Counted from the stretch's first letter, positions 8,028 to 37,925 are shown. The stretch: DNA of 64,000 bases from Acidobacteriota bacterium (GCA_040755995.1 JBFMAF010000032.1:355212-419211), one strand, 5' to 3'. Numbers and translations are program-made. The notes: generated from the sequence alone by a model not told the origin.

Positions 8028-8115
8028 GAAATGCGGAATGCGGAGTGCGGAATGCGGAATAGGGCAGACCACCGGTCGGTGGCCAGTACCGCTCTGTGCG
8101 AAACCGCGGAAGGGG
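8028..8115 (+). repeat. Heptamer-IR element E1, left part (array plus first half of core)
   Basis: (GAATGCG)n then AGGGCAGACCACCG core start; breaks off at gcgaaaccgcggaagggg. Confidence 0.8.
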
Positions 8116-8206
8116 ACGTAGTATACTTGGTTGGGACCGAATTGCGGAGTTGTGCCGGTCAAGATTCTGCCTGGGGAGCTCCGACCGGCAGATGGAGGAG
8201 AGTGAG

Positions 8207-8458
8207 ATGGCGAAGGTGATCGCAAGCGAGGTCGAGATAGAACTGAGCGTCGGGCAGGTTGTCGACATCGTGCGTCAACTCAAGCCGGAGGATCAACAAG
8301 AAGTGCGGCGTGCCCTCGACGCGACGCAGGACCATCCTTTGGACGCTCTTCTGGAGACCGTGTGGGCACGCGTCGAACGGGAGCCGATTACGGAGGAGGA
8401 GGTCTGCGCAGAAGTCGAACGCATACGGACGAGCCGGCATGATTCGGGCCGTGATTGA
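8207..8458 (+). CDS. Putative antitoxin of PIN toxin
   Basis: 83-aa ORF with SD GGAGGAG, ITEEEVCAEVERIR tail, overlaps the PIN gene. Confidence 0.7.
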   Translation: MAKVIASEVEIELSVGQVVDIVRQLKPEDQQEVRRALDATQDHPLDALLETVWARVEREPITEEEVCAEVERIRTSRHDSGRD

Positions 8459-8891
8459 CACGAACCTGTTTGTCCGCGGTCTCCTCCGCGGGCCCGTCAC
8501 GCTCCCGTTGATCCAGGCATGGAAAGAAAGGCGTTTTCGACTGGTTTCGTCAGAAGCCCTCCTCGAAGAGCTTTTCGATGTCCTCGCGCGCCCGAGATTC
8601 ACGCGCTACTTCACTCGTGCGGAGGTGCGAGAACTGGGGCAGTTGATATACTCACGGGCAGAGATCGTCGAACCGCGACAACGGTTGCTCTTGTGCCGTG
8701 ACCCGAAGGACAACGTCTTTCTCGAGGTGGCGGCGACTGCGGGCGCTGACTACCTGGTGACCGGCGACGACGATCTGCGGGATGACACTGCTCTGAAGGA
8801 CCAGATGCTGTCTGACTACGGTGTCCGCATCGTATCCGTGCCGGACTTCCTTGCTGCATTGACGGCCGCGGAGAGGCAGCAGCAGGTGTGA
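8439..8891 (+). CDS. PIN-family toxin (PIN_3-like)
   Basis: MIRAVIDTN, CRDPKDNVFLEVA, ADYLVTGDDDL. Confidence 0.9.
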   Translation: MIRAVIDTNLFVRGLLRGPVTLPLIQAWKERRFRLVSSEALLEELFDVLARPRFTRYFTRAEVRELGQLIYSRAEIVEPRQRLLLCRDPKDNVFLEVAATAGADYLVTGDDDLRDDTALKDQMLSDYGVRIVSVPDFLAALTAAERQQQV

Positions 8892-8898
8892 AGGCGGG

Positions 8899-9000
8899 AT
8901 CTGCAATCTGAAATGGCGGAACCGCGGAAAAGGGTGCTCGGCCGCGGTCGATGGCGTTGGCAGACTCCGCATTCCACATCCCGAATTCCGCATTATGCGT
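8899..9000 (+). repeat. (AATCTGC)n array plus heptamer-IR element E1, right part
   Basis: atctgcaatctgaaat, then ggtgctcggccgcggtcg..ttggcaga (second half of the core, compare 11639-11669) and a degenerate (TTCCGCA)n array. Confidence 0.78.
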
Positions 9001-9025
9001 GCGGGCTGAACAGGTGCGCACCTGG

Positions 9026-9355
9026 TCAGACGGCGAGGTCGAGTGTGACTGCGAGTGCCTCGTCGAGCAGCGCGATCCTCGCGGTCGAGAGCGCCCCGAC
9101 GTAGTTCGTGAGCACCGACTTGGGCAGACTCACAAGCTCATCGCAGTGGATGTGGCTTTCGTGTTTCAGCCCCTCCTCGATACCCACAGGCAACTGAGTG
9201 CTGAGCCCCTGGCCCCTGGAATAGACGGGCGCGCAAACGACCGTCGAGAACCGTGAATCGATGAGCACCTGACGAGAGACGACCACGAATACCCTCTGTC
9301 TCCTGGGGTCCCGCGCCGAGGGGTGCTGCACCCGGTAAAGCTCGCCTCGCCTCAT
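9026..9355 (-). CDS. PemK/MazF-family toxin
   Basis: [46 protein letters not shown]. Confidence 0.9.
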
Positions 9356-9608: not shown

Positions 9609-9793
9609 GAAATGCGGAATCCGGAATAGGGCAAGCTACCTGGCGGTGGCCAGAACGGCCTTGTGCGGTGCCACTCACAGAGGCGTCTGGCCGCGGCCGC
9701 TGTGGTGGCCGATTCCGCATTCCGCATTGTGCAAGCGTCGGCCACGACTGTATCCTGCCTGCTGGAGCCCTCAAGTTCGAACAGTGACGCCCA
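9609..9793 (+). repeat. Heptamer-IR element E2 (core 9628-9711 forward, plus tail)
   Basis: Inverted GAATGCG/TTCCGCA arrays around an 84-nt core; tail tgtgcaagcgtcggccacg..gaacagtgacgccc. Confidence 0.88.
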
Positions 9794-9868
9794 GCAACAC
9801 AGCAACACACGGCTGTTGTATCGAGCGGATGGGGACGGTAGAATGAAGTGAGGCCGAGGTGGTGAGCG

Positions 9869-10486
9869 ATGCCGGTCCATGAAGAGATAACCGCCCGCAC
9901 TGCGCTGCGAATGACGGAGGACGAATTCGTGGCGTGGGCCGACGACGATACTCGAGCGGAGTATGTGGATGGGGAGGTGATCGTTCTGTCTCCTGAGTCA
10001 AGGGTGGATGAGGACATCCGTTGGTTGATTGGCGGCGCGCTCAGGGCATTCGTGGAGCGCCACAAGGTGGGACGGGTCTACGGGCCGAACATGCTGGTGC
10101 GCTTGCGCACGGGCGTCCGTCGCACACCAGACCTCCTCTTCGTGTCCGCCGCACATCTCGATCGCATCCGAGAGGCTCATGTCGAAGGCGCACCTGATCT
10201 GATCATGGAGATCGTGTCGCGGGACAGCGCTGCGCGCGACTGGCATGACAAGTTTGCGGAGTACGAGGCTGCGGCAGTTCGGGAGTACTGGATCGTGGAC
10301 CCGGCGGCCCGGCGGGTGGATGTCTATGCCCTTGATTCGGCTGGACGCTACAGCGCGCAACCACAAACGGAAGGTGCATGGCGATCAACGGCTGTTCCGG
10401 GCTTCTTCATCCGGCCGGAATGGCTCTGGCAAGAGCCGCTGCCAGAGACCATCGAGCTGCTCCGAGCGCTCGGAGTCATCAATTGA
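9869..10486 (+). CDS. Uma2 family endonuclease
   Basis: EYVDGEV, RTPDLLFV, APDLIMEIVS, KFAEYEAAAVREYWIVDP. Confidence 0.92.
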   Translation: MPVHEEITARTALRMTEDEFVAWADDDTRAEYVDGEVIVLSPESRVDEDIRWLIGGALRAFVERHKVGRVYGPNMLVRLRTGVRRTPDLLFVSAAHLDRIREAHVEGAPDLIMEIVSRDSAARDWHDKFAEYEAAAVREYWIVDPAARRVDVYALDSAGRYSAQPQTEGAWRSTAVPGFFIRPEWLWQEPLPETIELLRALGVIN

Positions 10487-10737
10487 ATGCGGAACCGTGG
10501 AAATGCGGAATGCGGAATGCGGAATGCGGAATCCGCCACAACCACCGACCGCGGCCAGTTGCCTCTGTCGCCGGCTGCGCAACGGTCATTGCTACCACCG
10601 TCAGGTCGTTCGCCCTATTCCGCATTCCGCATTCCGAATTCCGCATTGTGCATGCGTCGATCACGAAGGTATCCTCCGCGCCCGAGCCCCCAAGTGCGAA
10701 CAGTGACGCCCAACGCGGCGGATTCCGCATTCCGCAT
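10485..10737 (+). repeat. Heptamer-IR element E3 (core 10533-10616 inverted, tail forward)
   Basis: Core ends in GTTCGCCCT, the reverse complement of the AGGGCGAAC start; tail in the same orientation as E2/E4. Confidence 0.9.
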
Positions 10738-10788
10738 CGTGGTGACCTCAGACCCACCGGAGTGCCGGAACGATGCAGGGTGGCCCTG

Positions 10789-10824
10789 AATCTGCAATCT
10801 GCAATCTGAAATCTACAATCTGAT
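10789..10824 (-). repeat. AGATTTC-family heptamer array
   Basis: aatctgcaatctgcaatctgaaatctacaatctgat just before the ATG at 10826. Confidence 0.8.
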
Positions 10825-11538: not shown

Positions 11539-11770
11539 AATGCGGAAATGCGGAAATGCGGAATGCGGAGTGCGGAATGCGGAATAGGGCAAACCACCGC
11601 ACGGCGGCCGAAACCGGCAGTGCGGAGCCGCCAATGAAGGTGCTCGGCCGCGGTCGGTGGCGTTGACAGATTCCGCATTCCGCATTGTGCACGCGTCGAG
11701 CACGAAGATATCCTCCGCGCCGGAGCCTGCAGGTGCGAGCAGCGACGCCCAACATGGCCGATTCGGCATT
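11539..11770 (+). repeat. Heptamer-IR element E4 (core 11586-11669 forward, plus tail)
   Basis: Same architecture, 84-nt core. Confidence 0.9.
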
Positions 11771-13710: not shown

Positions 13711-13752
13711 AGATTTCAGGATTTCAGATTCAGATTGCAGATCTCAGATTGG
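13711..13752 (+). repeat. AGATTTC-family heptamer array
   Basis: agatttcaggatttcagattcagattgcagatctcagattgg. Confidence 0.75.
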
Positions 13753-16671: not shown

Positions 16672-16755
16672 AATCTGGTAGCCAATGTAACGTAGCTTGA
16701 CTGACCAACAGCCTTGAGCAAACGCAAGAAACAACGATCTCACAAGGAGGGGATA

Positions 16756-24198
<7,443 letters not shown>

Positions 24199-24204
24199 GG
24201 CTCC

Positions 24205-24347
24205 GAAATGCGGAATGCGGAATGCGGAATAGGGCGAACTACCGTACGGTGTCCAAGAAAACCAATGCGGAGCCACCGCCAGAGGCGCATGGCCGCGGAC
24301 AGGCGTTCTGGCTAATTCCGCACTCCGCATTCCGCATTCCGCATTAT
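24205..24347 (+). repeat. Heptamer-IR element E5 (core 24231-24314 forward)
   Basis: 84-nt core between inverted arrays, a few nt after the stop codon. Confidence 0.9.
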
Positions 24348-24411
24348 GGTGGCTTGCGTCCAGATGGGCCTAGGAGCGCATGAGCGCAGAAGGATCGCCA
24401 GTGGTCGAAAA

Positions 24412-24762
24412 ATGAGTGTTGAGGAGTTGAAGGGGAGGACCAAGCGATTCGCCTTGGAGGTGCTAATGTTCGCGAAGTCATTGCCTCGGGGCCCGATCTC
24501 GGATGTCTTGGGCAGACAGATGATGCGATCGGGAACGTCTGTGGGAGCGAACTACAGGGCTGCGTGCAGAGCCAAGTCTAATGCGGACTTCGTCTCGAAG
24601 ATGGGGACCGTCGAGGAGGAGCTGGATGAGACGATGTACTGGATGGAGATGCTGGTCGAAGCAGGGATCGTCCGAGCGGAGAAGACTACGTCCCTGATGA
24701 AGGAGGCCAATCAACTCTTGGCAATCACCGTGGCCAGTATCCGAACGGCGAGAAGAAGGTGA
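24412..24762 (+). CDS. Four helix bundle protein (23S rRNA IVS-protein / bAvd-like family)
   Basis: LKGRTKRFAL..LGRQMMRSGTSVGANYRAACRAKSNADFVSK..EELDETMYWME..KEANQL. Confidence 0.93.
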   Translation: MSVEELKGRTKRFALEVLMFAKSLPRGPISDVLGRQMMRSGTSVGANYRAACRAKSNADFVSKMGTVEEELDETMYWMEMLVEAGIVRAEKTTSLMKEANQLLAITVASIRTARRR

Positions 24763-24766
24763 CAGA

Positions 24767-25024
24767 GAAATGCGGAATGCGGAATGCGGAATGCGGAATA
24801 GGGTGAACCACCGCCCGGTGTCCGAGACGGCCAGTGCGGAGCCACCGCCAGCAGCTCATGGCCACGGACAGTCGTTGTGGCAGATTCCGCATTCCGCATT
24901 CCGCATTCCGCATTATGCCTGCGTCGGCCACGAAGGTAACCTGCGCGCTACGGTCCGCAAATGTGAATCGGGACCCCCCCAACGTGGCAGATTCCGCATT
25001 CCGCATTCCGCATTCTGCATTGTG
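24767..25024 (+). repeat. Heptamer-IR element E6 (core 24800-24883 forward, tail, third array)
   Basis: Most complete copy: array-core-array-tail-array. Confidence 0.92.
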
Positions 25025-25076
25025 CCGACATCTGTTCCGATGGCTTCAGAAGCGCACGAGCGCAAAAGGACGACCA

Positions 25077-25907
25077 GTGGCTGAGAAGAACCATACCGTC
25101 GAGGATCTCGAATTCCGCTTGCTACTCGACGCTATATATGACCGCTACGGTTTCGATTTCCGCGGCTACGCGCCGGCATCGCTGAAGCGACGCGTCTGGA
25201 AGTGCATCCAACAGGAGAAACTGACGACTGTCTCCGCTCTGCAGGACCGAATCCTGCATGATCCGGCGTGCATGGAACGGCTGCTGATGGTCATTTCGGT
25301 TGACACCACGGCGATGTTCCGCGACCCGGGCTTCTATGCTTCACTGAGGAAGAATGTGCTGCCGGCGCTCAAGTCGCTGCCGTTGCTGCGGGTCTGGCAC
25401 GTCGGATGCGCCACGGGTGAGGAAGTCTACTCGACGGCGATCCTGCTCCATGAAGAGGGACTGCACGACAAATGCAGGCTCTACGCCACCGACATGAATG
25501 AAGCCCTGATCGAGAAGGCCAAGTCCGGCATCTTCGCTCTGGACGCCATGCGGGCGTACACCGACAACTACCTCAAGGCCGAGGGCAAGAAGTCATTCTC
25601 CGAGTACTACACCGCAAAGTACGACAACGCGATTCTGCGGCCCGCACTGCGCAAGAACATCCTCTGGGCCCAGCACAACCTGGTCACCGACGGGTCGTTC
25701 AACGAGTTCCACCTGGTAATGTGCCGCAACGTCATGATCTACTTCGACCGGCCGCTCCAGAACCGCGTCCACGACCTCATCTATGACAGCCTGGCCCCCG
25801 GCGGCTTCCTCTGCCTCGGCCTCAAGGAATCAACCAAGTTCACCAGCCACGAAGCCGACTACGACATGGTGGACGCGGCGAACAAGGTCTTCAGAAGGCG
25901 GACCTGA
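25077..25907 (+). CDS. cheR: CheR-type protein-glutamate methyltransferase
   Basis: YGFDFRGY, TAMFRDP, VWHVGCATGEEVYS, YATD, CRNVMIYF, GGFLCLG. Confidence 0.92.
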   Translation: MAEKNHTVEDLEFRLLLDAIYDRYGFDFRGYAPASLKRRVWKCIQQEKLTTVSALQDRILHDPACMERLLMVISVDTTAMFRDPGFYASLRKNVLPALKSLPLLRVWHVGCATGEEVYSTAILLHEEGLHDKCRLYATDMNEALIEKAKSGIFALDAMRAYTDNYLKAEGKKSFSEYYTAKYDNAILRPALRKNILWAQHNLVTDGSFNEFHLVMCRNVMIYFDRPLQNRVHDLIYDSLAPGGFLCLGLKESTKFTSHEADYDMVDAANKVFRRRT

Positions 25908-25910
25908 ACC

Positions 25911-26085
25911 GAATGCGGAATGCGAAGTGCGGAATGCGGAATAGGGCAAACCACCGCATGGTGTCCAAGACGACCAGTGCGGAGCCACCGCCAGTGGCGC
26001 ACGGCCGCGGGCGGTCGTTGTGGCAGACTCCGCATTCCGCATGCCGAATTCCGCATTGTATTAGCCTCCGCGCTACGGCCCGCAA
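25911..26085 (+). repeat. Heptamer-IR element E7 (core 25943-26026 forward)
   Basis: 84-nt core, shortened tail. Confidence 0.88.
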
Positions 26086-26097
26086 GAGCATACAGCG

Positions 26098-26709
26098 ATG
26101 AAACCTGAGATCATCGTAGTGGGCGCGTCTCTCGGCGGACTTCGCGCCTTGCAGACTGTGCTCAAGGCGTTGCCGCGCCTGTTCCCGGTGCCGGTTGTGA
26201 TCGTGCAGCACCGGGACAAGGACGCCCGGGACACGCTGGCGGGGCTTCTGGCGGAGTCGACACCGCTCAGCGTCGTCGAACCCGATGACAAAGAGAGAAT
26301 CGAGCCCGGACGGGTTTACCTGGCGGCTCCGGACTACCACCTCCTGATCGACCGTGATCACTTCGCCCTCTCAACCGATGCTCCGATCCTCTTCGCCAGG
26401 CCGTCGATCGACCTACTTTTCGAATCTGCTGCCGAAGTCTACGCGCAACGAGCCGTCGGCGTGATTCTGACCGGCGCCAACAGCGACGGCGCGCGTGGGC
26501 TGGCCGCCATCAAGGAACGCGGCGGCCTAACGATCGTACAGGACCCGACGACTGCGGATGCCCGGGCGATGCCAGATGCCGCCATTGCGACCAGAAGCGT
26601 AGACATGATCCTGCCCCTCGCGGAGATCGGACCCGTCCTGGCGAAACTGGGCCGCGTCGTGGGTCAGGACGCCCTGTGGGTGAGGGGAAGGAAGGGGCGC
26701 AGGACATAG
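26098..26709 (+). CDS. cheB: Stand-alone CheB methylesterase domain protein
   Basis: GASLGG, IVQH, RPSIDLLF, ILTGANSDGA, MPDAAI; no REC domain. Confidence 0.92.
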   Translation: MKPEIIVVGASLGGLRALQTVLKALPRLFPVPVVIVQHRDKDARDTLAGLLAESTPLSVVEPDDKERIEPGRVYLAAPDYHLLIDRDHFALSTDAPILFARPSIDLLFESAAEVYAQRAVGVILTGANSDGARGLAAIKERGGLTIVQDPTTADARAMPDAAIATRSVDMILPLAEIGPVLAKLGRVVGQDALWVRGRKGRRT

Positions 26710-26900
26710 AAATGCGGAATTCGGAATGCGGAATGCGGAATAGGGCGAACCACCGCCCGGTGTCCAAGACGACCGGTGCGGAGACACCGGCAGAGGTGCA
26801 TGGCCGCGGGCGGTGGTTGTGGCAGATTCCGCATTCCGCATTCCGCATTATGCCTGCGCAGACCACGACGGCGGCCTCCGCGCCGCGGTCTACAGGTGTA
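26709..26900 (+). repeat. Heptamer-IR element E8 (core 26742-26825 forward)
   Basis: Array starts at the cheB stop codon; 84-nt core. Confidence 0.88.
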
Positions 26901-26937
26901 GGCCCGAAGCTTATGGCACTAGCCCAGAGGGGTCAAG

Positions 26938-28065
26938 ATGGACACACTAGAGAAGACCAACGTCCTACTTGTGGATGATCGCCCGGAGAACCTGATGGCT
27001 TTGGAGACGATCCTCGCGGAGTTGGGGCAGAACATGGTCGAGGCGACCTCCGGAGAAGAGGCGTTGCGGCAGCTCCTCAAGATGGACTTCGCAGTCATCC
27101 TGCTCGACGTGCAGATGCCGGGGATGGACGGATTCGAGGTGGCCTCCGCGATTCGCGAACGCGACCGGTCGCGCGACACGCCCATCATCTTCCTGACCGC
27201 GATGGGCAGGAGCGACGAGCAGATCCGGAGAGGCTACTCGCTCGGCGCGGTCGACTACATCCTGAAACCGTTCGTCCCGGAGATACTCCGCTGGAAAGTC
27301 GCGGTACTCGTCAGCCTCTATCAGAAGACCGCCGAGCTGAGGGCACAGCTCGAGGAGAATCGGAGGCTGAACCGGGAGTTGGAGCTGGCGAACAAGGAGC
27401 TCGAGGCCTTCTCCTACAGCGTCTCCCACGACCTGCGCGCCCCTTTGCGGAGCCTGAGCGGCTTCAGCAAGGCGCTGATAGAAGACTACGGCGGCAGGCT
27501 CGACGACACGGCCTCCCACTACCTCGACCGCATCGCCGCGGCGAGCGAGCGGATGGACGGGATGATCACGGCGTTGCTCAACCTGAGCCGAGTTACCCGG
27601 CATGAGATGAGGCGGACCGCCGTGGATGCCAGCTCAATGGCGGAGGACATAGCGGCGGAGCTGCAGGAGAGCGATCCGAGCCGCGATGCAGAGTTCATCG
27701 TCGAGCCGGGCGCCGTCGTGGACGCCGATGCCCATTTACTGCGCGTTGCGCTCGAAAACCTCCTCGGCAACGCCTGGAAATTCACGGCGAAGCGTGACCG
27801 CGCGCGCGTCGAGTTCGGCACGACAAACGCAGGTGAACAGCAAGCGTGCTTTGTCCGCGACAACGGCGCAGGATTCGACATGACTTACGCCGAGAAGCTC
27901 TTCGGCGCCTTCCAGCGGCTGCACAGCCAGAGCGAATTCTCCGGCCACGGCATCGGCCTTGCCACCGTGCAGCGAATCATCCACCGTCACGGCGGCCGAA
28001 TATGGGCACAGGGAGAGGTGGGCAAGGGAGCCACATTCTTCTTCACGCTTGCCCCGGGGGGATAA
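26938..28065 (+). CDS. REC-HisKA-HATPase hybrid kinase
   Basis: LLVDDRPENL, LLDVQMP, FSYSVSHDLRAPLR, NLLGNAWKF, DNGAGF, GIGLA. Confidence 0.93.
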   Translation: MDTLEKTNVLLVDDRPENLMALETILAELGQNMVEATSGEEALRQLLKMDFAVILLDVQMPGMDGFEVASAIRERDRSRDTPIIFLTAMGRSDEQIRRGYSLGAVDYILKPFVPEILRWKVAVLVSLYQKTAELRAQLEENRRLNRELELANKELEAFSYSVSHDLRAPLRSLSGFSKALIEDYGGRLDDTASHYLDRIAAASERMDGMITALLNLSRVTRHEMRRTAVDASSMAEDIAAELQESDPSRDAEFIVEPGAVVDADAHLLRVALENLLGNAWKFTAKRDRARVEFGTTNAGEQQACFVRDNGAGFDMTYAEKLFGAFQRLHSQSEFSGHGIGLATVQRIIHRHGGRIWAQGEVGKGATFFFTLAPGG

Positions 28066-28071
28066 CAAACA

Positions 28072-28358
28072 GAAGTGCGGAATTCGGAATGCGGAACCAC
28101 GGAAATGCGGAATGCGGAGTGCGGAATGCGGAATAGGGCAAACCACCGGTCGGTGGCTGGTACCACCTCAGGTCGGTGCGTTACCGAGAACAGAGTTGTT
28201 TGGCCGGGGGCGATGGTGTGGCAGATTCCGCATTCCGCATTCCGAATTCCGCATTGTGCCTGCATCAGTCACGACGGCAGCGCCCGTGCCGCGGCCCGCA
28301 GGACCGAACCCGGACGCCCAAAGCGGCAGATTCCGCATTCCGAATTCCGCATTATGCT
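28072..28358 (+). repeat. Heptamer-IR element E9 (divergent 90-nt core 28135-28224 forward, tail, third array)
   Basis: Same ends AGGGCAAACCACCG ... TGTGGCAGA; altered middle. Confidence 0.85.
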
Positions 28359-28417
28359 TGCGTCGCTCATGACGGCCGCCTGCACCCCCGAGCGAGAAAT
28401 GGAGGAACCACAGTTCC

Positions 28418-29341
28418 ATGAAGGTTCTTGTCGCCGATGACGATCCGGTCTCCCGGCAGCTTCTGGAAGATGCGCTGGCGGCGAGCGGGGATGAGGTACT
28501 CTCGATCGACAATGGCCAGCGTGCCTTGGATGCGCTCCAGCGACCGGATGGGCCGAACATCGCCATCGTGGACTGGATGATGCCTGGGCTCGACGGGATC
28601 GAGTTCTGTCGCCGCGTCCGGGCAGACGCGCGCGAACCGTATGTCTACATGATCCTGCTCACGGCCGAGGACGAGAAGCGAGACCTGATCGAGGCATTCC
28701 AAGCCGGTGTCGACGACTATCTCTGCAAGCCGTTCGGTCAGGACGAATTCAATGCGCGCGTCCGCGCGGCGCGGCGCATCGTCGAGCTGCACATGCGGCT
28801 GGTCGCGGCGCGCGATGAGTTGCGGGTGCAGGCGGCGCACGATCGGCTGACGGGGCTCTTCAACCGCGGCGCGATTCTCGAGATGCTCGATCGCGAGCTG
28901 GCCCGGTCCACCCGCGCCAAGGCCCCGGTGACCGTCGTGATCATCGACATGGATCACCTCAAGAAGGTCAACGACACGCACGGGCGCACGGCAGGGGATG
29001 TCGTTCTGCGTGAGGCCGCGGCGAGGATGAAATCGGTGTTGCGAAGCTACGATTCGCTGGGCCGGTATGGCGGAGAGGAGTTCCTCGGGATATTGCCCGG
29101 ATGCGGTACCCAGTCGGGAATGGACTGCGCGAGGAGGATGTGCACACGGGTCGGCAATGCGCCGATCGAGACGGGTGAGGCAAGGGTGACCGTGACGGCG
29201 AGCCTCGGCGTGTCGGTCGCGGAGCCGTGGATCAAGCTGACCTCGGACATGCTGCTCAGCGCCGCCGACGCCGCCATGCACCGCGCCAAGCACGGCGGGA
29301 GGAACCGCGTGGAGCTGGCGCAGACGGGCGATTACGCCTGA
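28418..29341 (+). CDS. REC-GGDEF diguanylate cyclase
   Basis: REC domain, DRLTGLFNR, I-site RSYD, RYGGEEF. Confidence 0.93.
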   Translation: MKVLVADDDPVSRQLLEDALAASGDEVLSIDNGQRALDALQRPDGPNIAIVDWMMPGLDGIEFCRRVRADAREPYVYMILLTAEDEKRDLIEAFQAGVDDYLCKPFGQDEFNARVRAARRIVELHMRLVAARDELRVQAAHDRLTGLFNRGAILEMLDRELARSTRAKAPVTVVIIDMDHLKKVNDTHGRTAGDVVLREAAARMKSVLRSYDSLGRYGGEEFLGILPGCGTQSGMDCARRMCTRVGNAPIETGEARVTVTASLGVSVAEPWIKLTSDMLLSAADAAMHRAKHGGRNRVELAQTGDYA

Positions 29342-29426
29342 CCCACGATTGCAGATCTTGCGGTGAGTCGCATCCGCGGGCGCAAGTGGGAACAGCGACT
29401 GTGGTACAATTGGGGCGAGGAGTGAG

Positions 29427-29726
29427 ATGCCCACTGCCGCGGTCGAGCACATCGTGAGTACCCCGGGGGTGTGCGGTGGAAGGCCGCGCATCGCCGGGCG
29501 GAGGATCACGGTCGAGAACGTAGCGATCTGGCACGAGCAGATGGGGATGACGGTGGAGCAGATTGCTTCCGAGTATGACCTTACGCTTGCCGATGTCCAC
29601 GCGGCCCTCGCATACTACTTCGATCATCGAGACGAGACTGACCAGCGACTCAGGGAGGCGCGTGCCTTTGCCGAGGAAATGCGAAAGAGGACTCCTTCGA
29701 AGCTGAGCGGCAGGCTTGGGCGCTGA
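29427..29726 (+). CDS. DUF433 domain protein (antitoxin-like)
   Basis: PGVCGGRPRIAGRRITV..LTLADVHAALAYY. Confidence 0.92.
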   Translation: MPTAAVEHIVSTPGVCGGRPRIAGRRITVENVAIWHEQMGMTVEQIASEYDLTLADVHAALAYYFDHRDETDQRLREARAFAEEMRKRTPSKLSGRLGR

Positions 29727-29865
29727 ACGTATCTCTTTCTTGATGGACGAGCACGTTCCATCGGCCGTTACGTCGGGTCTACGCATGCGTGGCGCGGACG
29801 TCGCCACCGTTCAGGAGGCTGGGCTCGGGCACACGATCGCGGAATGGGTGGACTGCCATCTACTT
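29716..29865 (+). pseudogene. DUF5615 PIN-like toxin, truncated or internally deleted
   Basis: FLMDEHVPSAVTSGLRMRGADV..QEAGL, then similarity is lost (no T-x-D-x-D-F motif) and the frame runs into repeat DNA. Confidence 0.7.
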
Positions 29866-29930
29866 CGGCATCCGGCCTCTATCGGTGGTACTGGCAGATT
29901 CCGCAATCCGCACTCCGCATTCCGCATTGT
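29866..29930 (+). repeat. Heptamer-IR element E10 (3' core end plus right array only)
   Basis: tcggtggtactggcagattccgcaatccgcactccgcattccgcattgt. Confidence 0.78.
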
Positions 29931-29986
29931 GGTGGCGCCACCCTGGAGGGCTTCGCCGATGCCAGAGCACGGAAGGGCGAACCGAG

Positions 29987-32737
29987 TCAGCCGTCGAGCA
30001 CTTCGCGGACCTTGCGCGCGAGGGCGCGGGCCGAGAAGGGCTTTTCCAGCAGCTCGTTGCCGGGACCGAGCACTCCGTGGCGCGCCAGGGCATCATCCAT
30101 GTAGCCTGAGACGTAAAGTACCTTGGCCTCGGGCCGGCCCGGCTTCAGCCGCGACACCAGCTCCGGTCCGCTCACGCCCGGCATCACCACGTCGGTCAGA
30201 ATGAGGTGGATCGGGCCCTTGTGTAGCGACGCCTTTTCGACCGCCGCTGAGGCGTTTCCGGCGTCAAGTACCGTGTAGCCTCTGGCCGACAGCACCGTCC
30301 GCGCGAGACGGCGTACGTTCTCTTCGTCCTCAACAAGCAGGATCGTCTCGCTGCCGTCCAAAGGCGATTCGTCTGCTGCCGGCGCAGACTTCTCCGCCGT
30401 CTCATCTGCTGTGCGAGGCAGGTACACCCTGAACGTAGTTCCTTTCCCGAGCTCGGTTTCGACCTCGATTCCTCCTCCGCTCTGCTTGACGATGCCGTAG
30501 ACGGTGGCGAGGCCCAGGCCGGTGCCCGCTCCCCTCGGCTTGGTCGTGAAGAACGGCTCGAAAAGGTGCGAGCGCGTATTGTCGTCCATGCCGGTGCCGG
30601 TGTCCGCAATCGCGAGGATGACATAGGAACCAGGGGTTGGCTGGTGGTGTTCGCGAGGAAGCTCCGCCACCTCACGATTCGCGGTCTCGATGACGAGCCT
30701 GCCGCCGCGCGGCATCGCGTCCCGCGCGTTGACGCACAGGTTCGCGATTACCTGTTCGACCTGGCCGGGGTCTGCTTTGACCTTGCCGAGACCCGGATCG
30801 AGCCGCATCACGAAATCGACATCCTCGCCTATGATGCGGCGCAGCATCTTCTCCATCTCGGTGACCGTGGCGTTCAGGTTCAGAATGCGCGGCAGGACGA
30901 CCTGCTTGCGGCTGAAGGCGAGCAGCTGGCGAGTGAGCCCGGCTGCCCGCTCTCCCGCCTTGCGGATCTCGATGACGTCGTCGTGGAGCGGGTGTCCTTC
31001 GGCGATCTCCGACTCGAGCACGTAGCAATAGCCGAGAATCGCCGTCAGCAGGTTGTTGAAGTCGTGTGCCACGCCCCCAGCAAGCCTGCCGATCGCATCC
31101 ATCTTCTGCGACTGCACCAACTGCTGCTCCAGCCTCTTCCGCTCCGTGGCGTCGAACCCGGTTGCCAAGATGTACGGCGGAGCTCCACCGCCCGGATCGA
31201 TCAGGCTCGCATCCAGCAGAACCTCCACCGCCCTGCCGTCCTTCGTGCGACCGCGCATCTCGTAGCCGTGGATCTGGCCCTTCTCTGTCAGCAACGCGAC
31301 GAGCTTCTGCCGTTCGGCCGGGTCCCACCAGAGCGCCGTCGCTTCCAGTTGCTCGATCTCCTCCGGCGATCCGTAGCCGAGCATCCTGGCGAGGGCACGG
31401 TTGCACCGCTCGACTCGGCCGTCGGAAGCCGCCTGCAGAACACCAGCTACGCTCCGTTCGAATAGCAGCCGATACTGCTCCTCCGAGGCGCGCAGCGCCT
31501 CCTCGGCCTGCCGCTGCGCTGTGATGTCGCGCGCGATGCCCTCGATCGCCTGCGGCCGCCCCTCCGAGTCCGCCACCGTCACGGCCTCATCAATAAGCCA
31601 CAAGACGCGGCCGTCGCGCGTCACCATGCGGTACTCGCATACGAACGGAGACGCCGTCTCGACCGAGCGCCGCTGCTCTTCCAGGACGCGTGCCCTGTCC
31701 TCGGGATGGATCTGCCGGGCGCGGAGCCCAGGATCGGCAAGCCATTCCGCGGGGGTGAAGCCCAGGAAATGCTCGACCTGCGGGCTGATGTAGAGCAGGC
31801 GGCCGGGTTCGACCAGCGAGATCGTGTATGTGAGAGCGCGCACGTTCTCGACAAGCGTGCGGAAGCGCGCCTCGGACCGGCGCAGCGCATCGAGCGCCCG
31901 CTGGCGCTCGAGACGGGCGCGCGCCTCGCGCAGCTCCCGCTCCACCGCAGGCACCAGCCTCGCGATGTCTCCCTTCATGATGCAGTCGTGCGCCCCGTCT
32001 CGCATTATGGCGACGGCCGTCTCCTCGCCTATGCTGCCGGAGACGACGATGAACGGGATATCGAGGCCGGCGTCGTGCAGCGTCCTGAGGGCCGCAGGGG
32101 CATCGAAGCGCGGCATCGTGTAGTCCGAGATGATGATGTCGCAGCGCATCCTGGCCAGGGCCTCCCGCATCGCCTCGGCCGTCTCCACGCGTTCGTACGT
32201 CAGCTCATAGCCGCTGCGCGTGAGCGCGCGTACCACCAGATCCGCGTCCGCCGGTTCGTTTTCCACAACCAGCACCCTGAGCGGCACCGCCCCGGCAGCC
32301 TCCTGTTGAGGCGCCGTGGCGCGTACGGGATGCGACCAGTACACCCTCATCTGCCGCATTGCTTCCACCAGGTCCTGGAAGGCCGCAGGCTTTCGGAAGT
32401 ACATCGTCGCGCCGTGGACGTGGCCGAGAATCACATCCCGGTCGGCATCGGACGCCGAGAGCAGGATCACCGGCAGCTCCCTCGTACGTCCTTCGGCGCG
32501 GATGCGCCGCAGCACATCGAGCCCATCCACCTTGGGCAGACGGAGATCCAGGAGGACCACCTCCGGCAGGTCGCTCATATCCCTGCCGGCATGCGTACCC
32601 GCACAGAACAGGTAGTCGAGTGCCTCCTGACCGTCCCCGGCGACGACAACCTCGTTCGGGATACCGTTCTTCTCTATCGCCCGCAGCGTCAGCTCGACGT
32701 CATCCGCATTGTCTTCCACGAGCAGTATCTTTCTCAC
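29987..32737 (-). CDS. Hybrid sensor kinase REC-REC-PAS-PAS-HisKA-HATPase-REC
   Basis: [43 protein letters not shown]. Confidence 0.93.
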
Positions 32738-32769
32738 GTAATCATACCCCCTGCATGTGGAACCACCTC

Positions 32770-32993
32770 AAATGCGGAACCACCCGAATGCGGAATGCGG
32801 AGTGCGGAATGCGGAATCAGCCAGAACCACCGACCGCTGCCACGTGCCCCTGGCGGGAGCTCCGCAACGGCGGTTCCGACCACCGTCAGGCCGTTCGCCC
32901 TATTCCGCATTCCGCATTCCGAATTCCGCATTATGCATGCGTGACCCGCGACGGCTTCCCCAGAGCCTGACTCTGACAGGGCGAACAGCGACT
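32770..32993 (+). repeat. Heptamer-IR element E11 (core 32818-32901 inverted, tail forward)
   Basis: Core aligns without gaps to the reverse complement of the E6 core (58/84 by hand). Confidence 0.9.
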
Positions 32994-32997
32994 GTAA

Positions 32998-35307
32998 TCA
33001 TCCAAGGGTTTCTCTGACCTTCTGGGAGAGCGCCCGTGCCGTGAATGGCTTCTCCAGGAAGGGCACGTCCGGCTCGATGAGGCCGCTCAGAGGCTGAGCT
33101 TCGGGGTGTCCCGACATGTACAGGACTTTCAGGTCAGGGCGGGTCCCGGTGGCGAGCGCTGCCAGCTCCACACCGTCTCTTCCAGGCATCGCGATGTCGG
33201 TTAGCAACAGGTGAATCGGCCCGGGGTGATCGGCAAGAATTCTCATGGCCTCGGAGGCGTTGGAGGCGGCGAAAACGGCATGTCCCTGCCGCTCCAAGAC
33301 CCTGCTGGCCATCTTCAGGATCGCCGGTTCGTCCTCCACAACCAGAATCGTACGGGCTCGGGTCTCATCCGGCGTGGGGATTGCCTTTGCCGCCGATTCG
33401 GCCTGGGTGGCGGCCAGAGAGCGAAGGTAGATCGTGAACGTCGAGCCGGACCCCGGCTCGCTCTGGACCTGAATGTGGCCGCCGTTTTGCTTGACGATCC
33501 CGTACACGCTGGCCAGCCCGAGGCCTGTCCCCGTGCCCACGTCCCTGGTCGTGAAAAACGGTTCGAAAACGTGGTTCAGCGTCTCCGGATCCATCCCGCT
33601 GCCGCTGTCGCGGACGGCCAGTACGGCGTAGGCGCCCGGCTCGATCTTGCCTTCGAAGAGCTCGCCGCTCTCTTCGACCGTGGCATTCCGGGTCTCGATT
33701 GCGAGCTTGCCGCCCGCGGCCATGGCGTCGCGGGCGTTGGTGGCCAGATTCATGACGATCTCCTCGATCTGGGAGCGGTCGGCGTTGATGCGGCAGGTTG
33801 CGGGGTCGAGGGCCAAGGACAGTTCGATGCGATCGCCAATCATGCGGCGCAGCGTCGGCTCGAGTTCGACGAGGACGTGGTTGAGATCGACCACCCCTGG
33901 ACTGATGAGCTGCTTGCGGCTGAACGCGAGTAGCTGGCGCACCAGCGACGCGGCCCGCTCGCCCGCTCCCCGAATCTCCTCCAGCTCGCTCAGAAAGGGG
34001 CTGGTCTCGCCCAGGCCCGCGCGGAGCATGTCTGCGTAGCCAAGGATCGTCGTCAGGAGGTTGTTGAACTGGTGCGCCACGCCTCCGGCGAGCCTCCCCA
34101 CGGCCTCCAGCTTCTTCGACTGGAGCAGCTCTTCTTCGAGGCGCTTCCGATCGGTGATGTCCTGGACGGCGCTGATGAAGCAGGTGGGCTCGCCCGAGGG
34201 CCCACGGACCACCGAAGCGGCGAGCGAGACCCAGACGTGCGTCCCGTCCTTCCTCAAGTATCGCTTCTCGTTGGATGTCGTCGTCGCCTCGCCGTCGAGC
34301 ATCCTGCGCATGTTCTCCAGGTCCCGGCCGTGGTCGTCGGGGTGAGTGATGTCACGGGTGTTCATATGCCGCAGCTCGTCGCGGGTGTAACCGGTGATCT
34401 CGCAGAACCGAGGGTTGGCGTCCAACCATGAGCCGTCGGGGCGGATCTGGGTGATCCCCACGGCGGCCTGGTGGTAGATGGCGCTATAGCGGGCTTCCGA
34501 CTCGCGCCAGGCGCGTCTTTGCCAGGAGCGCCCGAGGGCCGATCGGACGGAGGCGGGCAGCCTGCTCCGGTGCTTGGGTGACTTCAGCACGTAGTCGTCC
34601 AGGCCGGCCTTCATGGCCTCGGCTGCCAGAGGCTCGCTTCCCGTGCCGGTCATGATGATGACGGGACAATCGGGCCTGTGGGCCTTGATTCTTCGGAGCA
34701 CGTGCAGGCCGTCCGTCCACCCCATCGAGTGATCCGTGATGGCAAGATCGAATCCGCCCGCGGCGAGCTCCCGGTTGAAGGCGTGCGGACCCGTGATCTC
34801 GATTATCTGAGTGCCTGGAAACTCGCGCATCAGTTCGCGTCTCGTTAACAGCAGGTCGTCGGGGTTGTCGTCGATGAGCAGAATCCGGAGGGGGCGGTCC
34901 AGAGGAGGGCAGAGAGTGTTCACAAGGTCTTTCAGGACATCCGGATCGATGGGTTTGAGAAGGTAGGAATTTGCTCCGAGCGTGTACGCACGCACGATAT
35001 CGGCGCTCTGATCCGACGTGGTCAGCACCACCACCGGCACCCTCTCCATCTCGGGCCGGCCGCTTCGCCAATCCAGCACGTCGAAGCCGGTCTTGCGGGG
35101 CATGTTGAGGTCCAGCAGGATCATGCATGGCAGCGGGAAGGACTCGCGGTCCGCGAATGCGCCGTCTCCCGAGAGATAACCGATCGCAGCCGCGCCGTCC
35201 TCGAGGTGTACGATCCGGCCTTTCAGGGCGGCCCTCTCGAAGGCGCGCCTTGCCAGGAATACGTCATCCGGACTGTCTTCAACCAGCATTATGACCCGGT
35301 CTTTCAT
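32998..35307 (-). CDS. Hybrid sensor kinase REC-REC-PAS-HisKA-HATPase-REC
   Basis: MLVEDSPDD, GANSYLLKP, GGVAHQFNN, EPFFTTR..GTGLGL. Confidence 0.93.
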   Translation of the reverse strand: MKDRVIMLVEDSPDDVFLARRAFERAALKGRIVHLEDGAAAIGYLSGDGAFADRESFPLPCMILLDLNMPRKTGFDVLDWRSGRPEMERVPVVVLTTSDQSADIVRAYTLGANSYLLKPIDPDVLKDLVNTLCPPLDRPLRILLIDDNPDDLLLTRRELMREFPGTQIIEITGPHAFNRELAAGGFDLAITDHSMGWTDGLHVLRRIKAHRPDCPVIIMTGTGSEPLAAEAMKAGLDDYVLKSPKHRSRLPASVRSALGRSWQRRAWRESEARYSAIYHQAAVGITQIRPDGSWLDANPRFCEITGYTRDELRHMNTRDITHPDDHGRDLENMRRMLDGEATTTSNEKRYLRKDGTHVWVSLAASVVRGPSGEPTCFISAVQDITDRKRLEEELLQSKKLEAVGRLAGGVAHQFNNLLTTILGYADMLRAGLGETSPFLSELEEIRGAGERAASLVRQLLAFSRKQLISPGVVDLNHVLVELEPTLRRMIGDRIELSLALDPATCRINADRSQIEEIVMNLATNARDAMAAGGKLAIETRNATVEESGELFEGKIEPGAYAVLAVRDSGSGMDPETLNHVFEPFFTTRDVGTGTGLGLASVYGIVKQNGGHIQVQSEPGSGSTFTIYLRSLAATQAESAAKAIPTPDETRARTILVVEDEPAILKMASRVLERQGHAVFAASNASEAMRILADHPGPIHLLLTDIAMPGRDGVELAALATGTRPDLKVLYMSGHPEAQPLSGLIEPDVPFLEKPFTARALSQKVRETLG

Positions 35308-35365
35308 GGCGGGCCTCCCGATATGATACCGATGCCCTAATCATAGACCTATTCCAGGGGGGATT

Positions 35366-35605
35366 CCACCCGAATGCGGAATGCGGAGTGCGGAATGCGG
35401 AATCTGCCACAACCACCGACCGCAGCCACGCGCCCCTGTCGGGAGCTCCGCAACGGCGGTTCCGACCACCGTATTCCGAATTCCGCATTCCGAATTCCGC
35501 ATTATGCCAGAATCTTCCGCGAGGGTGACCACCGAGCCCGGGCCTCCGGGTGCGAGGCCGGGTGCCTAACGCGGCGGATTCCGCATTCCGAATTCCGCAT
35601 TATGC
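35366..35605 (+). repeat. Heptamer-IR element E12 (inverted core 35404-35472, 15 nt short; tail; third array)
   Basis: Very similar to the E11 core but lacking the end of the core (tcaggccgttcgccc). Confidence 0.88.
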
Positions 35606-35722
35606 ACACGTGTGGCTATGACCGCCGACTTGAAGCCTCAGCGCCTGATGGCATACAGCGGTTCACTATCTCCGGATGCCTGCGCATTGAATCAGCCTTC
35701 CCATCCGCACTAGAATACCTCT

Positions 35723-36256
35723 ATGAAGAGACTCCCCCTGGGTATTCACACGTTCCGCAGAATTATCGAAGGGGGCTATCTGTATGTGGACAAGACCAGG
35801 CTGAGGCACCTGCTGGCCGAGGCCAGCAGCAGCCCGGCCGAACAGGCGGGTCTCCTCGCGCGGCGGCTGGCCGAGTCTATCCACCGGGACGACCTGAGCG
35901 GTTTCTTCAGTCTTCTGAGATCGCTTTTCGCTTCGATCCCGTATGACGCTTTCGTGAGCGACAGGGAGGGCTACTATCAGACCGTGGTCTACCTGGCACT
36001 GGCACTCATGGGTGTGGACGTGAAGACCGAGGTGGAGACCAATATTGGACGCGTCGACGCCGTCATCGAGACGCAGACGCGGGTGTACGTGATCGAGTTC
36101 AAGCTGGGCACTGCCGAGGAGGCTCTGCAGCAGATCCGTGAGAGGCGCTACCACGAGAGGTTCCTGCACTCCGGGAAGCAGGTTCAGCTCGTCGGCGTCG
36201 GATTCAATCCCCAGCTGCGGAACATCGGAAGCCATGCCACGGAGCCCGCCCCATGA
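35723..36256 (+). CDS. Internally deleted AAA-ATPase/PD-(D/E)XK nuclease paralog (nuclease domain retained)
   Basis: MKRLPLGIHTF..YVDKTR fused in frame to the C-terminal ~150 aa matching 45487..47046 (GRVDAVIET..YVIEFK..ALQQIRERRY). Confidence 0.8.
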   Translation: MKRLPLGIHTFRRIIEGGYLYVDKTRLRHLLAEASSSPAEQAGLLARRLAESIHRDDLSGFFSLLRSLFASIPYDAFVSDREGYYQTVVYLALALMGVDVKTEVETNIGRVDAVIETQTRVYVIEFKLGTAEEALQQIRERRYHERFLHSGKQVQLVGVGFNPQLRNIGSHATEPAP

Positions 36257-36303
36257 AGATTGCAGATTTCAGATTGCTATCTGCGATCTGCGATCTGAAA
36301 TTG
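36257..36303. repeat. AGATTTC-family inverted array (hairpin) between convergent genes
   Basis: agattgcagatttcagattgc followed by tatctgcgatctgcgatctgaaat. Confidence 0.75.
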
Positions 36304-37875
36304 CTACGGTGCCACCGGTACTTGCACCGTCTGAGTGCTCAGAACGCGCCCCTGGGCCGCGAATGCGACCTTGATCGGAACGCGGGCGCTCTTGGTGATC
36401 GTGCCGCCACGCACGCCTACCACACGGGTCCTCGCCGAAACGCTGGAACCGGCGGACAGGCTGAATGAACTGCCCGTGGTGACCACTACGCGCGAGTCGT
36501 TCGAGTACACGCGGACGGCGACGCCGAAGGTGGTGCCGGCGGGATCGCAGGTGGAGACAGTAAGCCGCAGCGTCGCGTTTCGTCCCGCGTGCAGCGTGCC
36601 GTCGCCCGAGATCGTGCTCGAATCGATCGCCGCAAAGCCTCCGGCCGCGGCGGCCGCCGTCTGGAGCATCTCGAGCGTGAGCTGCGCCAGCGGCTCGATT
36701 TGCGCGCGATCGGGCCAGAAACCGTCATCATCCCCGCCCACCTCGGGGGTGAATGCGAGTACGCCCCGGGCACCGTACATATAGTCGTCCGCGTCTCCAT
36801 TGGTTGGATATCCGACAGTGGTGTACCCGGTTCCCACGAGGAACTGGTTGTGCTTCGCCAGCAGTCCGCCCAGCCATGGCATCAGCGTGGGTTCCGGAAT
36901 GCTTTCCGTGTACCCCCAGGGGTGGATCAGATAGTTGCCGAAACTGTGGAGATTCAGAGCGGTCCCGAACTTCTGCTTCTCGCAGAACTTCTTCAGAGCC
37001 GTGGTCTCCGGCTCGGAAAACGGCCCGGTTCCGCGATATACCTCGGACCTCGGCTGGGGAGACGAGCCTTCGTCGTTGTATCCCCACATGTATCCGAAAT
37101 TGCGGTTCAGGTCGACGCCCGAGCTCCCGTCAGAGTTCACGCGCATGTTCTTCCTGTGCATGCCACCCCCCGAGGGGGCCTTCTGCTCGTTGTACACGTA
37201 TCCGTCAGGATTTACGACGGGGACGACCCAGATCTCGCGGCTGTTCACCAGCCAGGTGGCCCGCGGATCGCTCCCGTAGCTCTCGACCAGATCCCTCACG
37301 AAATAGAGCAGACTCATCATCCCCTGGGGCTCGCGTGCGTGCGTGAGCCCCGTGAGCAGCACCCGGGGCTCGCCTTCGGTCTTCGAGGGGTTATCCGATA
37401 TCTTGTATGCCCAGACCGCGCGCCGTTGTATGCTGGAGCCGATCTTCGTCTGCACCCCCACGATCTCCGGGCGCCCCGCCCTGTACTCCTCCATCTTCGT
37501 CACGACCTCGCTGTACGTGAAGTTCCCCCCCATGCTTCCTTCAGCGAACTCACCGGGCTCGGCAGGTGCCGCCGCAAGTCTCTTCGCATATGCGGCCTCG
37601 ACGTCCTCGACCTCAACTCGCAGATCGACACCGAGACCTCTCCAGCCCAAGGCCTCCGCCGCCTCCGCGAAGAGCCACACACGGCCGTCGCGCCTGACGG
37701 ACCCCTCGAAATCAGCACCCTCGTTGATCAAACGTCCGACCGCGACAGGCGTATCAGGCACGCTGACGCGCTGCCAGGTCTCAGCCGCAGCGCCCGACGA
37801 CACCAATACCAGGATAACCAAACCGACTGCAATCCGAGATTCGGTGCGTTGGCAAGGACGTGGTGCACCAGCCAC
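36304..37875 (-). CDS. M14 zinc carboxypeptidase (CpT-like), secreted
   Basis: HARE, NPDG, RKN, DLNRNF, FSEPET, LHSFG, FTPEVG; start uncertain. Confidence 0.88.
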   Translation of the reverse strand: MAGAPRPCQRTESRIAVGLVILVLVSSGAAAETWQRVSVPDTPVAVGRLINEGADFEGSVRRDGRVWLFAEAAEALGWRGLGVDLRVEVEDVEAAYAKRLAAAPAEPGEFAEGSMGGNFTYSEVVTKMEEYRAGRPEIVGVQTKIGSSIQRRAVWAYKISDNPSKTEGEPRVLLTGLTHAREPQGMMSLLYFVRDLVESYGSDPRATWLVNSREIWVVPVVNPDGYVYNEQKAPSGGGMHRKNMRVNSDGSSGVDLNRNFGYMWGYNDEGSSPQPRSEVYRGTGPFSEPETTALKKFCEKQKFGTALNLHSFGNYLIHPWGYTESIPEPTLMPWLGGLLAKHNQFLVGTGYTTVGYPTNGDADDYMYGARGVLAFTPEVGGDDDGFWPDRAQIEPLAQLTLEMLQTAAAAAGGFAAIDSSTISGDGTLHAGRNATLRLTVSTCDPAGTTFGVAVRVYSNDSRVVVTTGSSFSLSAGSSVSARTRVVGVRGGTITKSARVPIKVAFAAQGRVLSTQTVQVPVAP

Positions 37876-37925
37876 CGTCAGGTCGTACACCCTATTCCGC
37901 ATTCCGCACTCCGCATTCCGCATTC
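37872..37925 (-). repeat. Heptamer-IR element E13 (partial, whole-element minus orientation)
   Basis: Minus strand reads gaatgcggaatgcggagtgcggaatgcggaat-agggtgtacgacctgacggtgg just after the acyl-CoA dehydrogenase stop. Confidence 0.82.

Follow-up and report, generated by a model that had tools for sequence, protein, structure and literature searches.

Heptamer-arm elements with reversed cores at gene junctions around a four-helix-bundle gene in an Acidobacteriota genome

Introduction

How can an 84-nt segment lie reversed between two mirrored repeat arrays at some sites of a genome when everything outside the arrays keeps its direction? The question arises in a 64,000-nt stretch of an Acidobacteriota genome (hereafter the window; positions 355212-419211 of contig C32 in the 7.7 Mb host genome G000, whose contigs carry C-numbers), where 13 complete or partial copies of a dispersed element, E1 to E13, lie between positions 8028 and 37925. 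An earlier note on this DNA described an element with a core of fixed length, inverted in three copies by crossover in the innermost units of heptamer arrays. On balance, and with moderate confidence, we favour the reading that these are gene-less copies of a heptamer-arm element associated with a four-helix-bundle (4HB) gene, which spread into gene junctions with exchange of modules and rare reversal at the arrays.

Anatomy and copy number

On the plus strand the element reads as a lead, a left array of GCGGAAT units, a core, a right array of ATTCCGC units, a tail and a second right array, the arrays having 2-5 heptamer units, mostly 4 (Table 1). Re-measurement reproduced the 13 copies of the earlier note, its eight cores of exactly 84 nt between GCGGAAT and ATTCCGC arrays, and the ungapped identity of 58/84 that it gave for E6 and E11; pairwise values among the eight range from 38 to 74 of 84. 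The genome-wide collection of copies that it had proposed was made with a covariance model built from the eight 84-nt copies, which returned 12 full copies at E<=4e-7, the eight themselves among them and 10 of the 12 inside the window. The paired-array pattern occurs in 0 of 40 and 0 of 400 other genomes, the 400 being of the same phylum; given this absence and the covariance-model matches, the copies are not a chance pattern. Outside the window, copies or fragments lie at C32:286616-286960 (a 103-nt core with two tandem tails), C20:8076-8200, C7:12172-12230, C31:100765-100841, C35:281830-281883, C32:153916-153993 and C37:274700-274765.

Lengths are less uniform than had been thought. The core measures 84 nt in 9 of the 12 complete cores genome-wide and 69, 90 and 103 nt in the others; E2 reaches 84 nt by way of one +1 and one -1 indel, and the 90-nt core of E9 carries +7 and -1 indels. 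The tail, earlier put at about 75 nt on the plus strand, does follow the right array on that strand (E2, E3, E4, E6, E8, E9, E11, E12), but a complete tail is 77 nt long (79 in E6) and closed by the second array, that of E7 is partly deleted, and E5, E10 and E13 have none. E1 reads as a single copy split by a vapBC pair with a short duplication of core bases, and E13 is an incomplete copy that lies in its entirety on the minus strand, with normal polarity and with its core not flipped.

Reversed cores

The cores of E3 and E11 match the other cores at 40-67 of 84 positions once reverse-complemented, and at no more than 40 of 84 as read on the plus strand. The core is thus reversed in E3, E11 and E12, as the earlier note had it, while the lead and tail of the same copies remain on the plus strand. 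Its statement that the array variants usually stay on that strand as well is borne out by E11 and E12, where the leads and both the left GGAGTGC and right CCGAATT variants do so, and by E3, which retains the lead and the right variant; in E5, E8, E9, E10 and E13 a variant unit lies on the opposite side from usual. To judge from these variants, the exchange points in E11 and E12 must fall inside the variant units and so no further out than about the innermost two repeats, in agreement with the crossover there that had been proposed.

The note had set recurrent flipping against a single ancient inversion recognisable as one clade of inverted cores. In a core tree of 12 rows, without E1, E10 and E13, the cores of E3, E11 and E12 lie together on one side with weak support (76/77). 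Because the flipped cores group in this way, one flip or conversion followed by copying would be sufficient, though it is not proven, to account for all three. Conversion from a copy like E13, whose core is of the E3/E11 subtype, would have the same outcome as a local inversion, since on the plus strand a copy of opposite orientation likewise has its core preceded by a left array and followed by a right array. An assembly artefact seems an unlikely source of the reversed cores, which bear substitutions of their own.

Independent exchange of cores and tails

The earlier note overlooked both the independent assortment of cores and tails and the link to the 4HB gene. Across the eight copies that have both modules, tail distance and core distance give rho -0.58, with 98.7% of permutations as high or higher. 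Two pairs, chosen after seeing the data, illustrate the discordance in opposite directions: E11 and E12 share 64 of 69 core positions and 37 of 77 tail positions (Fisher 2.5e-9), and E3 and E4 share 54 of 84 and 65 of 77 (Fisher 0.004). Faster decay of truncated tails could inflate the first contrast, not the second. Because core and tail do not share a history, the two modules were probably swapped between copies independently, at the arrays.

Association with a four-helix-bundle gene

E5 and E6 flank a 4HB gene, with opposite arrays on its two sides, and the 13 copies are spread over 8-38 kb around it. The host genome has five full-length TIGR02436 genes, and only the one in the window has GCGGAAT arrays beside it. 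A Chitinophagales genome (G401) shows the same arrangement. Members of its own array-core-array family stand on either side of a 4HB gene from the same clade, 53% identical to the one in the window, so that 4HB genes adjoin heptamer-arm elements in two phyla. The two flanking cores at that locus (L193:765-1680, G401:C12) face opposite ways.

Among 25 other 4HB genes (21 of 38 matches, plus 4 from the host genome), GCGGAAT arrays stand at 2 of the 3 nearest against 1 of the 22 others (p=0.029; these genomes were picked for arrays). In genomes not chosen for arrays, a heptamer run lies within 200 nt of 24 of the 29 best 4HB relatives, on both sides in 15, against 4 of 58 control windows, and the units at these loci are related, though drifting. 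At two loci (L217, L230) the 4HB gene sits directly between a left and a right array, where the core sits in the host window. The 4HB protein matches PDB 2rld, a five-chain entry, and has no relative in the viral contigs searched. The family is likened to Avd, an accessory protein of diversity-generating retroelements (DGRs), in the available text of PMC10053308.

Gene junctions and the host operon

The copies stand at gene junctions, breaking no reading frame; the left array usually begins a few bases after a stop codon (within ~10 nt in E3, E5, E6, E7, E8 and E9). The genes between copies comprise toxin-antitoxin pairs, Uma2, response regulators, kinases, the 4HB gene, cheR, cheB, a GGDEF gene, DUF433 and an AAA/PD-(D/E)XK fragment, and E5-E9 occupy five consecutive junctions, one copy in each. 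Matches to cheR at E<=1e-60 occur in 14 of 300 other genomes of the phylum; at these 14 loci a large kinase lies upstream in 12, cheB or a receiver gene lies downstream in all, and the junctions are short. Neither there nor in the paralogous operon of the host genome is such an element found within 130 nt, or any 4HB hit. Because the operon is compact without the element elsewhere, the elements appear most simply to be later additions to a pre-existing operon, not carriers that assembled it.

Distribution in other genomes

A GTDB scan for paired arrays returned at least 120 loci in many phyla. The layout is therefore widespread, and several genomes hold homologous core families of their own between the same arrays; such families were seen in Bacteroidota, Acidobacteriota and Gemmatimonadota. 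That of G401 gives 23 core matches in 30 loci on many contigs, with inner lengths of 45-82 and a mode of 53 (6/21). Further core families in Blastocatellia and Gemmatimonadota comprise L040/L098/L112, L024/L072/L088, L014/L070/L093 and L053/L067/L119. Most of their loci are unrelated; L053 and L067 form an orthologous pair with a single orientation. A planctomycetotal locus (L037:1230-4039) has at least 11 tandem array-core-array-spacer units of ~255 bp, with many small indels that could be long-read assembly error.

The host family itself has a narrower distribution. Core and tail hidden Markov models run on 124 foreign loci gave nothing convincing (best E 0.93), two other genomes of the family and class had no blastn or covariance-model match, a viral collection had 0 matches to the element, and of two metagenome scans one had 0 matches and the other 4, all array-less. 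The comparison with relatives, proposed earlier, turned up no copy of the element in the 400 genomes of the phylum or in the two closer ones.

Sequence character of the core

In an Rfam scan of the window, which the earlier note had proposed, the element has no match at gathering score, and there is no rRNA match; the neighbours of the element are protein genes. The scan found only two other features, a group II intron domain (47480-47552; C32 has no reverse transcriptase gene) and a thiamine pyrophosphate (TPP) riboswitch on the minus strand (56518-56619) upstream of a TonB-dependent receptor gene.

Several origins for the core were considered and set aside. A decayed heptamer array is rejected on the lag-7 test (p=0.59), the core of G401 being, by contrast, heptamer-periodic; a signal was seen at lag 20 (p=0.002 among 23 lags). 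Against a coding origin, a mod-3 test gives p=0.23, 31 open frames have 0 Pfam hits, and synonymous excess is non-significant in 11 of 12 frames, the lowest value (p=0.046, uncorrected) belonging to a frame with 4 stops. A resemblance, by eye, of one core frame to the 4HB motif was not upheld. DGR-like adenine mutagenesis was likewise rejected, derived states per column being 1.7 at A against 1.1-1.3 at other core positions, with flat values across the tail; the two reverse transcriptase genes of the genome lie on contigs other than C32.

Table 1. Copies of the element and the genes associated with them, in window coordinates.
Feature	Position	Strand	Note
E1a: left array and 5' core part, split by vapBC insertion	8028..8114	+	
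VapB15-like antitoxin and PIN-domain toxin genes, between the E1 halves	8207..8891	+	15/18 core bases duplicated on either side
E1b: 3' core part and right array	8915..8994	+	
E2: arrays, core 9628-9711 (84 nt, +1/-1 indels), tail from 9726	9610..9802	+	
E3: lead, left array, core, right array, 77-nt tail 10645-10721, second right array	10485..10738	+	
E3 core, 84 nt, reversed; antisense to both neighbouring genes	10533..10616	-	
E4: arrays, core 11586-11669 (84 nt), 77-nt tail from 11684	11539..11770	+	
E5: arrays, core 24231-24314 (84 nt), immediately ahead of 4HB gene	24205..24342	+	
Leader of 4HB gene	24343..24411	+	47/69 identical to cheR leader/first codons 25019-25087
4HB gene, TIGR02436, PF05635 23S rRNA-intervening-sequence protein, 116 aa	24412..24762	+	
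E6: arrays, core 24800-24883 (84 nt), 79-nt tail, second right array	24767..25021	+	
E7: arrays, core 25943-26026 (84 nt), between cheR and cheB, tail partly deleted	25909..26054	+	
E8: arrays, core 26742-26825 (84 nt), truncated tail; starts at cheB stop codon	26709..26900	+	
E9: lead, arrays, core 28135-28224 (90 nt), 77-nt tail, second right array	28070..28350	+	
E10: 3' end of core and right array only	29880..29931	+	
E11: leads, left array, core, right array, diverged tail	32755..32990	+	
E11 core, 84 nt, reversed; sense to two neighbouring minus-strand kinase genes	32818..32901	-	
E12: lead, left array, core, right array, 77-nt tail, second right array	35362..35598	+	
E12 core, reversed, 69 nt (first 15 nt missing)	35404..35472	-	64/69 identical to E11 core
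E13: left-type array, then 5' core part of E3/E11 subtype, normal polarity	37870..37925	-	

Neighbouring genes and other repeats

The cheR-cheB operon is headed by a 2494-aa hybrid kinase (16714-24198) with 13.7 copies of a 276-bp repeat, which we take to be poly-HAMP-like. The leader of the 4HB gene goes back to an old duplication of the leader of cheR together with its first codons, the match scoring above all 5000 shuffles; the duplicated GTG in it opens a 4-codon frame whose stop overlaps the ATG of the 4HB gene. A paralogous kinase-cheR-cheB operon (G000:C37:277868-282705), as well as two other genomes (loci L160 and L159), has at the corresponding junctions arrays of short period that are of a different kind and decayed.

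A second heptamer family, CAGATTG/AATCTGC, stands at gene ends (7967-7993, 8901-8912, 10789-10822, 13711-13750 and ~36255-36300), with one opposite pair interleaved with E1 around vapBC, and arrays of yet other units (AATGCAA, GAGTGGA, AAATGCA, TGAAGTA) lie at 50754-50784, 58990-59023, 60495-60577 and 63586-63617. By E12 there is a truncated AAA-ATPase/PD-(D/E)XK gene (35723-36256), 66% identical to a full copy 10 kb off (45487-47046). An integron integrase is encoded at G000:C36:325985-326929, and the plus strand of the surrounding 11 kb has no match to RYYYAAC...GTTRRRY.

Discussion

In the reading that we favour, the full form of the element would be a 4HB gene between inward-facing arrays of ~4 heptamers, and the copies in the window would be non-autonomous derivatives in which an 84-nt non-coding core replaces the gene. 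These copies may have spread locally, around the resident 4HB gene, into the junctions of existing operons. The arrays would have served as short homology junctions at which core and tail could be exchanged independently; because the two arms mirror each other, the core could also be reversed, either through a single template switch during replication or through conversion from an opposite copy such as E13, and a reversed core could then be copied to other sites. In the transcript the arms may pair into a 14-28-bp RNA stem, a potential substrate for RNase III, whose gene is present in the genome. It belongs to this same reading, and carries the same moderate confidence, that the flips are rare past events and not a regulated switch.

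A number of observations weigh on the other side. The heptamer unit drifts within the 4HB clade, so that only 3 of the 29 loci are within one mismatch of GCGGAAT; we know of no catalytic activity in the 4HB family, and the core has no similarity to 4HB genes. Our searches found no close relative, and hence no same-species empty site or transposition intermediate was seen; five full copies show no evident target-site duplication at their presumed ends. Core divergence does not rise with genomic distance (Mantel rho 0.09, p 0.28), and spread with distance from the 4HB gene is unsupported. The grouping of flipped cores is weakly supported; an alternative uniting E3 with E4 is not rejected by the cores (p-AU 0.088) and the flipped clade is not rejected by the tail data (p-AU 0.29). 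The scarcity of indels, discussed below, hints at a constraint outside a neutral account, and the spacer inversions reported from yeast changed 2-5 bp, far below 84, in the available text of PMC8604942.

A bolder form of this reading, which we regard as rather unlikely, would make the 4HB protein, as a homologue of Avd, the factor that acts in trans for a class of mobile element not described before, recognising arrays of ~4 heptamers and driving the copying, exchange and inversion of its own gene, of cores and tails of constrained length, or of host genes. Were that so, the window would be a natural record of those reactions, with a REPIN/RAYT-like layout (see below) and no known transposase; it would account for heptamer repeats being in excess in many bacterial genomes, and would solve an orphan protein family and a long-unexplained repeat class together. 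If the 4HB protein is not the mover, the locus would show how mirrored short repeats can produce apparent invertons that should not be read as switches. In either case it offers a compact set of substrates: a resident 4HB gene, a dozen gene-less copies, and signs of core and tail exchange and of reversal.

We judge it unlikely that the copies are instead functional RNA elements, hairpins kept, irrespective of origin, at every signalling-operon junction to set mRNA cleavage or stability for each gene, with selection on length and on a bulged rod in the sense strand. The run of five occupied junctions from E5 to E9 and the presence of RNase III would suit such a role, and so would the indel record, with ~5 events per ~170 substitutions in the cores and 3 per ~240 in the tails. 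The core deficit is significant at an assumed neutral indel:substitution ratio of 1:10 (P 8e-4) but not at 1:20 (P 0.16), the tail deficit is significant at 1:20 (P 0.002), and conversion inflates tree lengths. A length constraint is possible, but it would not be peculiar to the invertible part, the tail being equally indel-poor. The earlier note had seen in the 84 nt a constraint of 12x7 nt, or about 8 helical turns, and this found no support: apart from the absence of a 7-nt period, the inner distances in other genomes show no peak at 84 (2 of 123 values from 119 loci) and are flat modulo 7 (p=0.16, 117 values; the tandem locus L037 is excluded from the set), so that helical phasing has no support there.

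The evidence from folding and orientation for an RNA element is similarly divided. The consensus fold is a bulged rod, more stable on the canonical strand at -43 kcal/mol against -36 on the other, and 90% of the cells of the inner rod are paired, a value reached in 13 of 500 shuffles. A check for covariation, which the earlier note had suggested, finds changes on both sides in only 4 of 25 pairs, however, matched in 56 of 500 shuffles, and just 3 of the 12 cores, folded one at a time, beat their shuffles at z<-2; the fold is a weak hint of RNA structure in the core. The core is in the sense direction at 11 of 12 junctions with co-directional neighbours (those outside the window called by open reading frame only), but these cases are not independent, and the three flipped cores comprise one sense, one antisense and one ambiguous case. 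Crude open reading frame calls in G401 give 2 sense against 7 antisense, and the operon is present without the element in 14 other genomes.

A shade less probable again is that nothing more is involved than plain intergenic heptamer repeats with local duplication and gene conversion, the 4HB gene being a passenger that favours the same sites. The genome does hold 145 heptamer arrays of many units, 11 of the 12 full copies lie on one contig with 10 of them within 26 kb, and there is no indication here of any activity of the 4HB protein. This account does not lead one to expect that homologous core families would recur between the same arrays in three phyla, that the family of G401 would lie on many contigs and one host copy on another contig (C20), or that the same 4HB clade would be flanked by the family in two phyla.

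We give very little credence to a working inverton, in which an enzyme acting in trans flips the core and so alters expression of the next gene. Its appeal lies in the reversal of three cores with lead, tail and outer variants unmoved, in a core length that is nearly fixed, and in the ~14-28 bp of homology available, which is short for general recombination. The flipped cores, however, group together and have substitutions of their own; no serine recombinase was found in the genome (0 matches to PF00239), and its 28 tyrosine-recombinase matches (TIGR02249) and its one IS110 gene are all off C32, as are the Y1 and reverse transcriptase genes. None of the 4 promoter-like sites in 24100-38000 lies inside a core, and in the 23 matches of G401 the longer array is never clearly 3' of the core. 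Just as hard to credit is an integron-like cassette array, with the hairpins as sites of single-strand recombination through which the intervening genes are recruited and shuffled, since for all that toxin-antitoxin, Uma2, DUF433 and PD-(D/E)XK genes lie between copies, that vapBC splits E1 with a short duplication, that all tailed copies in the window face one way and that an integron integrase is encoded on another contig, the RYYYAAC...GTTRRRY pair occurs in 0 of 10 copies on either strand, most of the genes between copies belong to a conserved operon and keep its customary order, and the integrase is unlinked.

Comparison with known systems

Invertons such as fimS, hin and the shufflons reverse a segment between inverted repeats, and integron attC sites, with RYYYAAC...GTTRRRY boxes as their motif, form hairpins between genes. 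The element resembles both in these respects; it differs from invertons in having no linked recombinase, no promoter in the cores scanned and no coding signal in the core, and from attC in lacking the boxes, TIGR02249 exceeding its cut-off only on C36. The earlier note had recognised neither REP/BIME (repetitive extragenic palindromic sequences and their bacterial interspersed mosaic elements), attC, CRISPR nor MITEs (miniature inverted-repeat transposable elements); attC, CRISPR and any Rfam family indeed do not apply, but the element is MITE-like in being multicopy and non-coding with terminal inverted repeats.

REP palindromes carry a conserved GTAG/CGTC foot. The arms here are tandem heptamers, not such palindromes, and GTAG is found on either strand in only 6 of 10 copies. 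REPINs, the REP doublets associated with RAYT transposases, are described in the accessible text of Bertels and Rainey (2011, PMC3116915) as inverted doublets with fixed spacings of 71 and 110 bp that form the copied unit, and there the likeness is close: a fixed-spacing inverted doublet in extragenic space, clustered by a candidate mover, with higher-order tandems. The adjoining gene, by contrast with RAYT, encodes a 4HB protein and not a Y1 transposase, PF01797 matches lying only on C36 and C17. Inversion of a spacer between inverted repeats by template switching is reported from yeast coding DNA in the parts of PMC8604942 available to us, with 2-5 bp changed; here the spacer would be 84 bp and would then have been copied between loci.

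Two further systems share the heptamers. The GGGAATC heptamers of Xanthomonas, in the accessible text of Rehm et al. (2015, PMC4692102), are intergenic runs, mostly of four units, many of them in close convergent pairs (70-75 pairs), the purine-rich strand following right after stop codons, all of which recalls the arrays here; that text describes no homologous core, tail, inversion or linked protein family, and the quadruplex-capable G-tract of the Xanthomonas unit is absent here, GCGGAAT having at most two consecutive G. The intervening sequence (IVS) in the 23S rRNA of Coxiella burnetii, as the available text of PMC4990558 presents it, has its S23p gene set among heptamer repeats, with a terminal stem of 28 bp and cleavage by RNase III, and so shares with the element a PF05635 4HB gene, tandem heptamers in an arm, and complementary arms enclosing a gene. 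The elements here differ from the account given there in standing in mRNA junctions and not in rRNA, in being mostly gene-less, and in having the 4HB gene between two complete elements.

In the open literature, with supplements and most subscription papers outside the search, we found no account of gene-less core families, of tail modules or of their exchange, and, apart from the Coxiella IVS, no paper that brings 4HB genes together with heptamer arms and gene-less cores. Heptamer arrays between genes are common in many bacterial phyla, and the parts of the cited papers available to us leave their origin open. By analogy, the element would appear to work most like a REPIN, although it belongs with neither REP nor RAYT. 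What is known is the pairing of four-unit heptamer arms and the package of arms plus PF05635, which is here found outside rRNA; what is new is the modular, REPIN-like family of cores and tails.

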